Shown here in pieces: positions 1 through 14,292 of a DNA stretch of 34,988 nt (the first letter of the stretch is position 1; the number at the start of each line of letters is the position of its first letter). The translations under genes and the position numbers were made by a program. Source of the stretch: Bacilli bacterium (GTDB taxonomy: Bacteria; Bacillota_I; Bacilli_A; RFN20; CAG-826); contig JAKSVL010000003.1 in NCBI GenBank assembly GCA_024407995.1, positions 1 to 34,988 on the forward strand. Direction: 5' to 3'. The notes below the pieces were generated by a model. It was not told where the DNA came from. It saw nothing but the letters and a program-made list of their open reading frames with translations, and searched no databases.

Positions 1-53
1 AATTATAACTTTCAAAAAATGTCTCCAAGTAAAAGAAAGTTTACATCTTTTTC

Positions 54-82
54 TTGCCATACAAATAACAAAAATGTAATAT
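54..82 (+). promoter_or_regulatory. Putative sigma-A promoter of the HTH-glmM operon
   Basis: TTGCCA (54-59), 17-bp spacer, TAATAT (77-82); SD AGGAGG at 98-103 before ATG 112. Confidence 0.6.
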
Positions 83-111
83 TTTTCCATTCATACTAGG
101 AGGTTGCGTCT

Positions 112-1752
112 ATGACTATTGGTGAAAAGATTGTCCACTTGCGTATTGTTAATAACATTTCTCAAGAAGAATTGTCTAAAAACTTAAAAGTCTCAAGACA
201 ATCATTATCTAAATGGGAAAATAATGACACTTTACCTCCTTTGAATTCTATTAAGGATTTATGTCAAATCTTTAAAGTATCCGCTGATGAACTTATTGAT
301 GACAACATTGTCATTCATCGTGGCAAAAGAGTAGAACTCCCTGATGAAAATATCAAAACAAAATATTTCGGTACTGATGGTTTTAGAGGCGAGGCTAATG
401 AATCATTAAATTCAGATAAAGCTTATAAAATTGGTCGTTTCTTAGGTTGGTTCTATAGCAATCCTAAATACAATATGCAAAAGCCAGGATATCGTCCAAA
501 AATTGTTATCGGTAAAGATACAAGACGTTCTTCCTATATGCTTGAATATAGTGTCGCTGCTGGTGCGGCTAGTAGTGGTGCAGACGTGGAGTTACTCCAC
601 GTGACCACAACCCCATCTGTTTCATATATCGTGAGACAAGACTGTTTTGACTGTGGTGTGATGATCACGGCATCCCACAACCCATTCTATGACAATGGTA
701 TTAAAGTCATTAATGCTAATGGTGAAAAACTTGAAGATGGTGTGGCCTACTTAGCAGAAGCTTATTTGGATGGTGATTTTAAAGCCCTTGGTCTTGAAGA
801 TGAAGAAGATTTACCATTTGCTAAAAGAGGCGATATTGGCACAATCAACGATTACTCATCTGGTAGAAATAGATATATTGGTTATCTTATCTCTTTAGCA
901 AGACATTCCATGAAGAGATTAAAAATTGGTTTAGATACTGCTAACGGTGCTTCTTGGATGATTGCTAGAAGTGTTTTTGAAGCACTAGGAGCACAAGTGT
1001 TTATCGTTAACAACCATCCAGATGGTTTAAATATAAATTTCAATGCGGGTTCCACTCACATTGAACAATTCTGTAAATTTGTAAAAGAAAATAAATTAGA
1101 TGTCGGTTTCGCCTTTGATGGTGATGCTGATAGATGCATTGCCGTTGATGAAAATGGCAAAGAAGTCGATGGTGACAAAATCATGTATTTGCTTGCCTGC
1201 AAGTTACAAAGTGAAGGTTCCCTTGAAAAAGATACTGTCGTCGCCACAATTATGTCCAATAGTGGCCTTGAAAAGGCCCTTAAGAATATTGGCCTTAAAT
1301 TGGTGAGAACCAAAGTTGGCGATAGATTCGTCTTTGAAAAGATGATGAGTGATGGTTACGCTCTTGGTGGTGAACAATCTGGTCACGTTATTATTAGAAA
1401 ATATGCTACAACTGGTGATGGTGTTTTGACTGCTATCATGCTCGCTGAAGAAATGCTTGAAAGAAAAGAAACTCTTTCTAAACTTGTCTCACCAGTGAAA
1501 TTATTCCCACAAAAAACCAAAAATATCAAAGTCACTGATAAGAATGCAGCGGTAGAAGACGCTGCAGTCAAAGCTAAATTTGACGAAGTGAATAAAGAGA
1601 TTGGTGATAACGGGCGTGCGTTATTAAGACAATCTGGTACTGAGCCAGTCATTCGTATTACTGTGGAATATCAAACCTTACAAGGCTGTGATGAATATAT
1701 CGAGAAGATATATAACGTTGTGAAAAAAAGAGGCTTTGTCATCGATGAATAA
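112..1752 (+). CDS. glmM: Phosphoglucosamine mutase with fused N-terminal XRE-family helix-turn-helix domain
   Basis: aa ~1-65 XRE HTH (SQEELSKNLKVSRQSLSKWEN); GlmM from KYFGTDGFRG, phosphoserine loop TASHNP, metal loop FDGDADR, sugar loop GEQSGH, C-terminal RQSGTEP. Confidence 0.9.
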   Translation: MTIGEKIVHLRIVNNISQEELSKNLKVSRQSLSKWENNDTLPPLNSIKDLCQIFKVSADELIDDNIVIHRGKRVELPDENIKTKYFGTDGFRGEANESLNSDKAYKIGRFLGWFYSNPKYNMQKPGYRPKIVIGKDTRRSSYMLEYSVAAGAASSGADVELLHVTTTPSVSYIVRQDCFDCGVMITASHNPFYDNGIKVINANGEKLEDGVAYLAEAYLDGDFKALGLEDEEDLPFAKRGDIGTINDYSSGRNRYIGYLISLARHSMKRLKIGLDTANGASWMIARSVFEALGAQVFIVNNHPDGLNINFNAGSTHIEQFCKFVKENKLDVGFAFDGDADRCIAVDENGKEVDGDKIMYLLACKLQSEGSLEKDTVVATIMSNSGLEKALKNIGLKLVRTKVGDRFVFEKMMSDGYALGGEQSGHVIIRKYATTGDGVLTAIMLAEEMLERKETLSKLVSPVKLFPQKTKNIKVTDKNAAVEDAAVKAKFDEVNKEIGDNGRALLRQSGTEPVIRITVEYQTLQGCDEYIEKIYNVVKKRGFVIDE

Positions 1753-2419
1753 AAAAGCAGTTTTAACAAAAGATTTATTCAATATCGAAGAGCCTTCATA
1801 CATGAAAGAGTTTTTTGGCAGATATGAATATCCTTGGCAAATGCTTCCTCATATTAAGGATCTAATAAGTGAATTATTAGAAAAGGGCATTCCAGGATAT
1901 ACCTTACTCAAAGAAGGTGTTTTGATAGGTGAGGATGTGAGCATCGCGCCAACCGCGACAATTATTCCCCCTGCTATTATCGGTAGTCATACCGAAATTA
2001 GACCAGGTGCCTTTATTAGAGGAAACTTCATCTGTGGTGAGAACTGTGTTCTTGGTAATTCTTCAGAATTCAAAAATGCCATTCTCTTATACCACGTACA
2101 AGTCCCACATTATAACTATGTTGGTGATTCCATCCTGGGTAATTATGCTCATATGGGTGCAGGTTCAATCTGCTCAAACCTAAAAAGCGATGGAAAGAAC
2201 ATCACCATACATGGTGATACTGAAATCGAATCCGGTTTAAGAAAAATAGGGGCAATCCTAGGAGATTATGCAGATATTGGTTGCCAGTCCGTTCTTAATC
2301 CAGGAACAATCATTGGCAAACATACACAAGTGTATCCATTAAGTATGGTACGCGGTGTGGTCCCAGAAAATAGTATTTATAAAGCAAAAGATAATATTGT
2401 CGTTAAAGAAAAGAGGTAA
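1745..2419 (+). CDS. GlmU-related left-handed beta-helix acetyltransferase (probable glucosamine-1-phosphate N-acetyltransferase) with no nucleotidyltransferase domain
   Basis: Hexapeptide repeats; HYNYVGDSILG, GAGSICSN and KIGAILGD motifs of the GlmU C-terminal domain; only ~224 aa; ATG 1745 overlaps the glmM end. Confidence 0.8.
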   Translation: MNKKAVLTKDLFNIEEPSYMKEFFGRYEYPWQMLPHIKDLISELLEKGIPGYTLLKEGVLIGEDVSIAPTATIIPPAIIGSHTEIRPGAFIRGNFICGENCVLGNSSEFKNAILLYHVQVPHYNYVGDSILGNYAHMGAGSICSNLKSDGKNITIHGDTEIESGLRKIGAILGDYADIGCQSVLNPGTIIGKHTQVYPLSMVRGVVPENSIYKAKDNIVVKEKR

Positions 2420-2425
2420 AACAAA

Positions 2426-3148
2426 ATGAAAGTAGTTATCGGCACAAACGAAGAAATCAGCAAATTGATTGCAGAAGAATTTATCAAGCAAGTCCAAAAG
2501 AAACCAAATAGTGTTCTTGGTTTAGCAACAGGTACATCTCCAATTGATGTTTACGCTAATATGATTAAGGCTAATCAAGAAGGTCGTGTTTCATTTAAAG
2601 ATGTCGCCACATTTAACTTAGATGAATATATTGGCTTAGAAGGTACACACGATCAATCTTATCGTTATTTCATGAATAAATATTTATTCAATGGTTTAGA
2701 CATTGACAAAGCTCGCACACATGTTTTAAAAGGTGTTGGTGATTATTTAGCATATGCTAATCAATACGATGCTGAAATCGCTTCTTTCGGTGGCATTGAT
2801 TTACAAATCTTAGGTATTGGTAGTGATGGCCATATCGCTTTTAATGAACCAGGAACTCCATTTGATTCATTAACTCATGTTGCAGAATTAACCGAACAAA
2901 CAATTAAAGATAATTCTCGTTTATTCAATGATATTTCTGAAGTCCCAACTAAGGCTGTTACTATGGGTTTAAAGAGCATTATGAATGCAAGAAAAATCGT
3001 TTTAATTGCAACTGGTCAAAATAAAGCACAAGCAATTTATAATTTATTAAAAGGTCCAAAGACCGAAGATGTTCCTTGCTCAATTTTACAAGATCACCCA
3101 GACTGCACAATTTATTGTGATGCTGCGGCATATAGCTTAATTAAGTAA
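2426..3148 (+). CDS. nagB: Glucosamine-6-phosphate deaminase
   Basis: GLATGTSP, FNLDEY, GIGSDGHIAFNEPG motifs. Confidence 0.95.
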   Translation: MKVVIGTNEEISKLIAEEFIKQVQKKPNSVLGLATGTSPIDVYANMIKANQEGRVSFKDVATFNLDEYIGLEGTHDQSYRYFMNKYLFNGLDIDKARTHVLKGVGDYLAYANQYDAEIASFGGIDLQILGIGSDGHIAFNEPGTPFDSLTHVAELTEQTIKDNSRLFNDISEVPTKAVTMGLKSIMNARKIVLIATGQNKAQAIYNLLKGPKTEDVPCSILQDHPDCTIYCDAAAYSLIK

Positions 3149-3162
3149 AAAAAGCACCAAAT

Positions 3163-3190
3163 AAAAGCGGCTGAAACACGCCGCTTTTTT
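3163..3190 (+). terminator. Intrinsic terminator after nagB
   Basis: AAAAGCGGC-tgaaacac-GCCGCTTTTTT hairpin plus T tract. Confidence 0.85.
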
Positions 3191-3259
3191 ATTGGCAATT
3201 TTTAAAAATTAGGGTTTTACTTACAAAAAATGCTTAAAAATGCGATAATATAAACGTAA

Positions 3260-14156: not shown

Positions 14157-14175
14157 TTAACAAAAGGTCAATATA

Positions 14176-14255
14176 CCTAAGACAGTAACGGACGAAATAG
14201 TCTTAATCATGTTACCGAGGCGTATGTATAAATACCCATCGTATATTGGAGCCTC
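14176..14255 (+). promoter_or_regulatory. L10 leader (autoregulatory RNA of rplJ-rplL)
   Basis: CCTAAGACAGTAAC...TAA...GTTACCGAGG core typical of L10 leaders, between rplA and rplJ. Confidence 0.8.
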
Positions 14256-14292
14256 AAAAAATCAATTTTTTAGAAAAAAGGAGGTCAAGAAT

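Follow-up and report, generated by a model that had tools for sequence, protein, structure and literature searches.

The window analysed here is a stretch of 34,988 nucleotides (nt) from contig JAKSVL010000003.1 (positions 1 to 34,988, forward strand) of assembly GCA_024407995.1, which belongs to a Bacilli bacterium. Near its left end lies one open reading frame, HTH-glmM, in which a helix-turn-helix (HTH) domain of the XRE type is joined in frame to a complete phosphoglucosamine mutase (GlmM). An earlier note on this DNA had proposed the product of this gene as a candidate enzyme-regulator. The features of the gene and its protein are as follows.

98 to 103, forward: Shine-Dalgarno sequence AGGAGG, 8 nt 5' of the ATG at 112
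112 to 1752, forward: HTH-glmM open reading frame, 546 amino acids, with no internal stops
112 to 306, forward: XRE-type HTH domain, residues 1-65; Pfam HTH_3/HTH_19, with a five-helix fold in the AlphaFold2 (AF2) model
within 112 to 306, forward: recognition helix of the HTH, about residues 28-37 (SRQSLSKWEN)
307 to 360, forward: linker, residues 66-83 (18 amino acids), a coil in the AF2 model and conserved in the genus
361 to 1752, forward: complete GlmM, residues 84-546 and the stop codon; TIGR01455, four PGM_PMM domains
667 to 684, forward: loop TASHNP, residues 186-191, which includes Ser188; T186, A187, S188, H189 and N190 are invariant in 43 fusions

The profile searches agree with the layout claimed in the earlier note, namely an XRE HTH of about 65 residues, a linker of about 18 residues and a complete GlmM. 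In Pfam, HTH_3 was matched at residues 14-61 (43.7 bits against a cut-off of 23) and HTH_19 at residues 4-63, followed by PGM_PMM domains I-IV, in order, at residues 84-534. The NCBIfam model TIGR01455 (glmM) scored 486.2 bits at residues 86-538, above its cut-off of 447.55, and was covered from position 1 to position 441 of its 442. It can also be seen from the coordinates above that, as had been stated, no stop lies between the two parts and the Shine-Dalgarno sequence stands in front of the HTH. The claim that all catalytic motifs are present was borne out by the alignment of 43 fusions, in which the loop residues T186-A187-S188-H189-N190, D336-G337-D338/D340-R341, G420-E421-Q422-S423-G424-H425 and R506/S508-G509-T510-E511-P512 are invariant. 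Ser188 is presumably the phosphoserine position of the phosphohexomutase superfamily, and the serine, metal, sugar and phosphate roles of the other loops are assumed to be those of the superfamily in general. From these motifs, and from its status as the only GlmM-like gene found, the fusion probably interconverts glucosamine-6-phosphate (GlcN-6-P) and glucosamine-1-phosphate (GlcN-1-P).

GlmM is normally a stand-alone enzyme of about 450 amino acids starting at KYFGTDG, and the fusion departs from this form by 83 extra N-terminal residues. The solved stand-alone GlmMs (7ojr, 3pdk and 6gyz) are the same four-domain phosphohexomutase with all loop motifs, and the nearest of them, 7ojr, aligns over residues 84-539 (E 6e-120). 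In the solved chains, the chain's own residue 2-3 pairs with residue 83-84 of the query and no N-terminal extension occurs; therefore, the first 83 residues, HTH and linker, are an addition absent from solved GlmMs. Searched alone, these 83 residues show likeness to the XRE domains of antitoxins and repressors, such as PezA.

Judged from the sequences, the fusion is obligate, the protein being made with its HTH attached. Between codons 2 and 130 of the window gene, the only in-frame ATG, GTG or TTG codons are TTG at 10, 21 and 44 and ATG at 122, and because none of these is a usable internal start, a complete GlmM without the HTH cannot be made from this gene. In 42 of 59 fusions, no ATG occurs within 14 codons of the point where GlmM begins; the remaining 17 do carry one in frame, situated in the linker 5-11 codons ahead of FGTDG, and a motif resembling a Shine-Dalgarno sequence precedes it in none of the 17. 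At the first ATG, 56 of the 59 loci have such a motif 4-20 nt upstream. An internal translation start yielding plain GlmM was accordingly ruled out, there being none in the window gene and none with such a motif in the 17 relatives. The linker ATG, at codon 76 in loci L034-L056, lies mostly within MSIGED..KTKYFGTDG. It may be the ancestral start of GlmM.

Occurrence, conservation and structure of the fusion

The fusion is real and old. The genus comprises 23 genomes, the present one included, of which 19 have a full-length match, 3 have one cut by contig ends and 1 (G013, 88% complete) has none. A second genus of the family has the fusion at 70% identity. Across the order, a match over both parts (query residues 1-140) was found in 55 of 401 genomes, all of them in family f1 (54/264), and in 0/136 genomes of the other seven families. 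In the class sample, the fusion was present in 6 of 40 f1 genomes and in 0/359 genomes of 29 other families, with one genome not scored. Conservation in related metagenome-assembled genomes, which the earlier note had suggested checking, is thus not confined to one assembly. Within family f1 the distribution is patchy (g28 13/13, g23 8/9, g33 11/21, g27 7/37, g22 2/50, g29 0/40), and identity over residues 1-140 ranges from 49 to 100% across assemblies and genera.

A word-indexed protein search with residues 1-130 gave 7662 matches, the best 120 of which form clusters 75-100% identical to the query, all with HTH and PGM Pfam domains. The source names given among these best 120 are "phosphoglucosamine mutase" and metagenome bins of Erysipelotrichaceae/Erysipelotrichia; since public annotation says just "phosphoglucosamine mutase", the extra domain goes unnoticed. 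In a search of protein representatives with residues 1-140, no full-length independent fusion from another lineage was seen, the best matches being tandem-HTH proteins and fragments. Four of the fragments (P0122, P0124, P0130 and P0132) consist of HTH and PGM_PMM_I and are 50-57% identical. Support across the junction, also suggested as a check, was obtained from contigs of two other studies, which bridge it without insertions or deletions (X2 record 14, 45-1157; X4 record 22, 81-3200). Additionally, X12 record 1 (131-397), a contig of an RNA library, reaches across the junction; because such libraries can hold DNA, this is only a weak hint of transcription.

Selection on the HTH was compared with selection on the enzyme using the ratio of nonsynonymous to synonymous substitution rates (dN/dS, Nei-Gojobori). 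The ratios are rough, with dS near saturation: within the genus they are 0.065 for the HTH, 0.17 for the linker and 0.075 for GlmM, and over the 43 aligned fusions 0.18, 0.33 and 0.11, respectively. Within the genus, purifying selection acts on the HTH as strongly as on the enzyme. In the recognition helix of the 43 fusions, R29, Q30, W35 and E36 are invariant and S31, S33 and K34 are at least 90% conserved. The degeneration of the HTH in homologues, which had been named as a point that would count against a regulatory role, is therefore not what these ratios and invariant residues indicate. The linker too is conserved within the genus (DDNIVIH[RK]G...).

The AF2 model computed on the fusion alignment has a mean predicted local distance difference test (pLDDT) of 86.4 and a predicted template modelling score of 0.82. 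The HTH is modelled as five helices (residues 3-13, 18-25, 29-36, 44-54 and 58-62; block-mean pLDDT 78-93) and the linker as a coil with no secondary structure (pLDDT 58-66). A two-copy model of residues 1-245 scored 0.59, compared to 0.01 for the best of 3 controls; among proteins of solved structure, 20 of 30 that are pairs of one chain and 1 of 23 that are single chains reach this mark. Runs share at least 98% of contacts, partner pLDDT is at least 88, and the predicted interface is GlmM domain 1 (residues 94-105, 139-154, 192-193 and 233-245). Because GlmM dimers have already been solved, the score may be model memory and shows likeness, not binding. If the dimer holds, the linkers would exit about 10 residues from the two-fold interface and the HTHs would be placed side by side, as a palindromic operator requires.

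In the present assembly, which is 69% complete, the fusion is the only GlmM-like gene. In the fusion genomes searched, just distant phosphohexomutases of about 28% identity were found besides it, and hence the fusion is the only GlmM found in these genomes. Among 10 genomes of the family without the fusion, 7 have a stand-alone GlmM, 37-44% identical to the fusion, and 3 have none at E 1e-20. In 6 of the 7 loci the stand-alone glmM directly follows cdaA (diadenylate cyclase), the classical arrangement in Firmicutes; the seventh is glmM-glmS. In contrast, the fusion gene is not linked to cdaA, which fusion genomes keep at another place (contig C57 in the present genome), so that GlmM has been uncoupled from the operon of the cyclic di-AMP (c-di-AMP) cyclase in the fusion lineage. 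In loci L074-L078 and L080, cdaA and glmM are adjacent with no cdaR in between. In a quick, unrooted maximum-likelihood tree, the GlmM parts of the 59 fusions are split from the 7 stand-alone GlmMs of the family with an SH-aLRT support of 100; the search was quick only, the separating branch is long, and long-branch warnings apply. The tree is compatible with a single origin of the fusion.

The operon and its candidate operator

Upstream of the gene, a palindrome and a promoter-like site were found.

28 to 45, no strand: IR-A, an 18-bp palindrome AGTAAA-N6-TTTACA, candidate operator of the HTH; it matches TGTAAA-N6-TTTACA at 11/12 positions and ends 8 nt before the -35
54 to 82, forward: promoter-like site, TTGCCA (54-59), 17 nt, TAATAT (77-82)

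The match to the promoter consensus is, by itself, not above chance (13 found, 13.1 expected). In relatives, read by eye, TTGnCA-17-TAAGAT/TAATAT stands at the equivalent place. IR-A was found by aligning upstream regions by eye and was scored afterwards. It is present at 11/12 positions or better in 44 of the 59 fusion loci, compared to 0.6% of shuffles and 1/59 with the reversed pattern; the loci, like the related genomes, are kin, so that such counts are not independent and 44/59 is not a probability. Across loci, again by eye, 8-10, 18-19 or about 26 nt separate the end of IR-A from the -35-like hexamer. The distances differ by roughly one turn of the helix, which suggests positioning on one face of the DNA. 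Apart from an overlapping contig end, the core GTAAA-N6-TTTAC is unique in the present genome.

A stricter 20-mer, ATGTAAA-N6-TTWACAT, occurs in 30 copies in the fusion genomes of the order sample. When tallied from coordinates, 21 of the 30 precede the glmM operon, glnA(-glmS), glmS or nagB.

before the fusion gene: 12 of 30
about 70 nt before glnA: 7 of 30
before glmS: 1 of 30
before a nagB paralogue: 1 of 30
elsewhere or unverified: 9 of 30

In an unbiased check of glnA loci, IR-A at 11/12 or better was found in 8 of 17 fusion genomes (9 with a 17-mer form) and in 1 of 8 non-fusion genomes. The glnA genes themselves are of two types: in fusion genomes most start MNKEEIKK.. (L125-L139) and are 70-95% identical among themselves, and in non-fusion genomes (L117-L124, L140 and L141) they start MAKYTK.. 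and are 57-67% identical to the first type. The glnA gene and the fusion may have spread together.

The palindrome is also found in the sister genus g29, where the fusion was found in 0/40 genomes and the strict 20-mer in 17 of 40, compared to about 4 with the reversed control. In 6 of 12 g29 loci fetched, it lies 69-106 nt before a stand-alone XRE gene whose recognition helix reads V[ST]RQ-x-[IL]-[SI]-[KN]-WE and whose helix 2-3 has the sequence of that in HTH-GlmM (SQEEL...V[ST]RQ-x-[IL]-x-x-WE). A palindrome in the promoter of a regulator's own gene is the usual mark of autoregulation. Since the palindrome precedes XRE genes with the same helix, IR-A appears to be the operator type of this kind of HTH, and its distance to the start codon is the same in HTH-glmM as in the g29 XRE genes. 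The stand-alone regulators concerned (L145, L148-L151 and L157; 263-423 amino acids) share SQEEL...VSRQSxSxWE in helix 2-3 with the fusion, with 22-24 identities over 59-62 residues, and they share the same palindrome before the start codon; C-terminally they are not GlmM, and it is the regulators' own genes and tldD-like genes, not hexosamine genes, that the palindromes precede. Three or four of the other fetched loci precede tldD-like genes. In L143, L144 and L147, TGTAAA-N6-TTTACA lies about 72-75 nt before genes for tldD-like peptidases.

HTH-glmM is the head of a conserved operon, judged by gene order and domain content, in which a GlmU-C-like acetyltransferase gene and nagB follow.

1736 to 2419, forward: stand-alone left-handed beta-helix acetyltransferase, 227 amino acids, putative GlcN-1-P N-acetyltransferase; Pfam Hexapep; overlaps glmM by 17 nt
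2426 to 3148, forward: nagB, glucosamine-6-phosphate deaminase, 240 amino acids, third gene; TIGR00502, 262.6 bits against a cut-off of 236.9

The acetyltransferase matches the archaeal-type GlmU model TIGR03992 at positions 216-393 of 393; its 136.9 bits fall below the cut-off of 292.1 because only the acetyltransferase (C-terminal) half of GlmU is matched. Most of the 27 loci examined have an acetyltransferase gene 3' of the fusion, and the trio is kept across genera, the most divergent fusions included. The glmS gene of relatives is found about 3 kb upstream of the fusion gene; in fusion genomes its immediate 5' neighbour is glnA or purA, and in one genome (L055) HTH-glmM, glnA and glmS are consecutive. 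Neither glnA nor glmS was found in the present incomplete genome.

A probable bifunctional enzyme and the alternatives

Taken together, the comparisons favour a bifunctional "trigger enzyme" that would autoregulate hexosamine supply, with a probability of roughly 0.55. The C-terminal 463 residues would be a catalytically competent GlmM, the only one found in the cell. The GlmM dimer, formed via domain 1, which starts about 10 residues after the linker, would pair the N-terminal XRE HTHs; the paired HTHs would bind the 18-bp palindrome TGTAAA-N6-TTTACA (window 28-45), which adjoins the -35 of the gene's own promoter, and binding would autoregulate the operon of glmM, the GlmU-C-like acetyltransferase and nagB. 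In relatives, HTH-GlmM may also control glnA-glmS, glmS and nagB, and the products of these genes would together supply hexosamine. Binding of the palindrome by the HTH of GlmM itself, not by a paralogue, is the probable reading of the same comparisons. As to the sign of control, repression is leaned to, or occlusion of a T-rich spacer resembling an UP element, with activation from about -54 equally possible.

By sequence, the marks of a trigger enzyme are present, that is, catalytic motifs and a DNA-binding domain in one polypeptide and sites, with the binder inferred, before genes of the enzyme's own pathway. The absence of other candidate regulators of the pathway also supports the trigger enzyme: the glmS ribozyme was found in 0/53 genomes of the family, fusion-bearing or not (the Bacillus subtilis control being positive), and MerR_1-type proteins, like GlnR/TnrA, in only 12 of 53. 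The earlier suggestion that the enzyme regulates its own operon has thus gained indirect comparative support from the palindrome, which occurs in the promoter of the fusion gene as well as upstream of XRE genes that share its helix and of glnA, glmS and nagB; DNA binding itself is what we infer from these positions.

Several observations weigh against this interpretation, besides the kinship of the loci counted. Sites at 11/12 or better number 8 in the present genome, compared to 7 for the reversed control, so that no regulon signal is seen there beyond the one site. The five most divergent fusions (L071, L073 and L081-L083) keep the helix and match IR-A at only 7-9/12 positions, carrying GCAAC-N5-GTTGC palindromes in its place; helix and operator therefore do not go one to one. 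Just 8 (or 9) of the 17 glnA loci in fusion genomes have IR-A, which, as the 17 of 40 g29 genomes demonstrate, is not exclusive to fusion genomes. Genus relatives encode stand-alone XRE paralogues with the same recognition helix (5/5 loci checked; L098-L101 and L107), and these could be the real binders. Moreover, the HTH lies outside the predicted dimer interface and the linker is of low confidence; a structural route for allostery is not visible in the models.

Two extensions of autoregulation are more tentative. The first, which we regard as possible but distinctly less probable than autoregulation itself, is that DNA binding is coupled to GlcN-6-P, GlcN-1-P, glucosamine-1,6-bisphosphate (GlcN-1,6-bisP) or the phosphoserine state; this coupling would be pure conjecture built on top of autoregulation. 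The second, held with similar reserve, is that HTH-GlmM might be the master regulator of hexosamine and glutamine supply in one family of gut Bacilli of reduced genome, in which the glmS ribozyme is missing and GlnR mostly so, flux being translated through the phosphoserine state or GlcN-1,6-bisP occupancy into operator occupancy. The operators TGTAAA-N6-TTTACA before glmM-glmU(C)-nagB, glnA-glmS, glmS and nagB would then, also tentatively, form one set.

Among the alternatives, it is rather unlikely that the HTH binds DNA uncoupled from catalysis, GlmM having only taken the place of the dimerization or sensing part in an ancestral XRE regulator some 260-300 amino acids long. The protein would then be a constitutive autoregulator, by which expression of the operon is tied to the protein's own concentration, an outcome to which we give the same low standing. 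Stand-alone XRE relatives with the same helix and operator do exist, the predicted dimer arises from GlmM domain 1 alone, the linker is a flexible coil, and allostery is required by no finding. However, the linker is strongly conserved within and between genera (dN/dS 0.17), beyond the need of a passive tether, and the predicted regulon (glnA-glmS, glmS and nagB) is the pathway that makes the substrate of the enzyme, which fits sensing.

It is unlikely, too, that the palindromes are bound by stand-alone XRE paralogues or another regulator, the HTH of GlmM being non-binding and having another role, such as protein contact, or none. The same-helix paralogues of genus relatives speak for this, as do the occurrence of IR-A in genomes without the fusion and that of GCAAC-N5-GTTGC before other XRE genes. 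Set against it are the purifying selection on the HTH, which equals that on an essential enzyme, and the invariant residues of the recognition helix; additionally, no further HTH with this helix signature was found in the present assembly, 69% complete as it is, and the strict sites, 21 of 30 of which stand before hexosamine or glutamine genes, fit a regulator tied to GlmM over a generic XRE protein.

It is improbable that IR-A is a nitrogen box of GlnR/TnrA type to which a MerR-type protein binds; its presence before glmM would in that case simply reflect nitrogen control. IR-A does resemble what we take to be the GlnR/TnrA consensus, TGTNA-N7-TNACA (17 bp); it precedes glnA in 8 of 17 fusion-genome loci, and one non-fusion genome (G041) has the 17-bp form before glnA. 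In nearly all copies, however, the spacing is one base longer (TGTAA-N8-TTACA), 41 of 53 genomes yielded no MerR_1 protein, among them G017, G274 and G337, which have sites before glnA, and the g29 palindrome precedes XRE genes, not glnA. GlnR/TnrA was therefore judged an unlikely binder. Finally, that the fusion arose in assembly or gene calling, or by a recent mutation joining the frames in a single genome, is next to inconceivable: the start of the window just 111 nt 5' of the gene is all that favours it, against many assemblies and genera with the fusion at 49-100% identity over residues 1-140, independent contigs that span the junction without indels, and a neighbouring contig that extends the upstream region.

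The trigger enzyme may be compared with known systems. Regulators that combine an active enzyme and a DNA-binding domain are few: NadR, BirA and PutA are enzyme-repressors with a fused DNA-binding domain and established effector control, representing the textbook view of how enzymes become transcription factors. The domain of NadR is of the XRE type, and the NadR box is an 18-bp palindrome of 6-6-6 build, resembling the HTH of the fusion and IR-A. In the three proteins, as in the fusion, one chain unites enzyme and DNA-binding domain, and their operators, like the candidate sites of the fusion, precede genes of the pathway to which the enzyme belongs; the enzyme family and pathway of the fusion differ from theirs, and the catalytic parts are not homologous. 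Solved stand-alone GlmMs differ from the fusion in lacking the 83-residue HTH and linker, and share with it the domain-1 dimer predicted here.

The build of BzdR, as outlined in the excerpts of its report (PMC3602430), is an XRE HTH, a linker and a shikimate-kinase-like domain, and thus like that of the fusion. In BzdR the kinase-like domain is inactive according to those excerpts, whereas the fusion keeps all catalytic motifs and is the only GlmM found. Regulators are argued there to arise when enzymes recruit DNA-binding domains (PMC3602430), and the fusion resembles the bifunctional intermediate that, in the same excerpted report, was built artificially (PMC3602430). In a further excerpted source, GlmM inhibits the c-di-AMP cyclase DacA/CdaA by protein contact (PMC6368335). 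This contact and the glmS ribozyme, known hexosamine controls of Firmicutes, act in the pathway at issue here and answer a common need for feedback on the supply of GlcN-6-P; in contrast, the control exerted by the fusion would be transcriptional, via a DNA-binding domain on the enzyme.

The earlier note knew of no characterised example, and the full-text literature searched agrees with this, no description of an HTH-GlmM fusion having been found in it; subscription journals and InterPro architectures lay outside the search. The gut bacteria concerned are a widespread, uncultured group in which the fusion is the sole and presumably essential GlmM. Its predicted regulon spans the supply of GlcN-6-P and its conversion to N-acetylglucosamine-1-phosphate, where the ribozyme feedback usual in Firmicutes is missing. 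If both binding and metabolite coupling are true, the fusion would offer a compact and readily tested model of how an enzyme senses flux, a new logic for controlling the supply of cell-wall precursors and a ready-made sensor part for GlcN-phosphates. If HTH-GlmM is indeed a master regulator, it would be a natural example of the stage at which an enzyme recruits a DNA-binding domain, so far only artificially reconstructed.

Other palindromes and flanking sequence

Two further palindromes occur near fusion genes. The first is represented in the window by one arm.

2 to 8, no strand: right arm ATTATAA of a 17-bp palindrome, TTATAAT-AAA-ATTATAA, whose left arm is on the neighbouring contig C47

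Genus relatives have the related TTATAAC-N3-GTTATA[AC] 5' of the fusion gene. TTATAAC-N3-GTTATAA is also present in the short aspS-tkt spacer in the 4 loci read (L022-L025), with near-identical matches in about 11 further genomes of the genus. As an operator of the HTH this palindrome was rejected, being confined to the genus, changing form in a sub-clade with an unchanged recognition helix and standing also before tkt. It suggests a second regulator common to the glmM operon and transketolase, and may fall outside the HTH-GlmM system.

The second, GCAAC-N5-GTTGC, matches at 9/10 or better in 19 of the 59 fusion loci, 17 of them with the palindrome 7-19 nt before the ATG, compared to 0.08% of shuffles. 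It abuts the Shine-Dalgarno sequence in other genera (L041-L045, L048, L052, L055, L057, L058, L066, L068, L069, L071, L073 and L081) and also precedes stand-alone XRE genes (L089-L091, L094 and L095) of 234-261 amino acids with the helix SRQAVS[KR]WE. Since it is absent from the genus of the window, it cannot be the operator of the window gene. It may be a second class of operator or a 5' RNA hairpin.

With Rfam at the gathering threshold, the window and 10 fusion loci were searched and no family was found in the fusion leaders; a known RNA element there was ruled out, and the only Rfam element found lies elsewhere in the window.

14158 to 14279, forward: ribosomal protein L10 leader, RF00557, before rplJ-rplL; 53.3 bits against a threshold of 44

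Contig C47 (2935 nt) belongs to the same assembly, and its reverse complement overlaps window positions 1-55 exactly, in what looks like an assembler k-mer overlap; by this overlap, the locus continues upstream into C47. That contig carries genes resembling those for glutamate dehydrogenase and an aminotransferase, a hairpin resembling a terminator and intergenic sequence of about 300 nt. Contigs C15 and C48, too, seem to have an end in common in this way.

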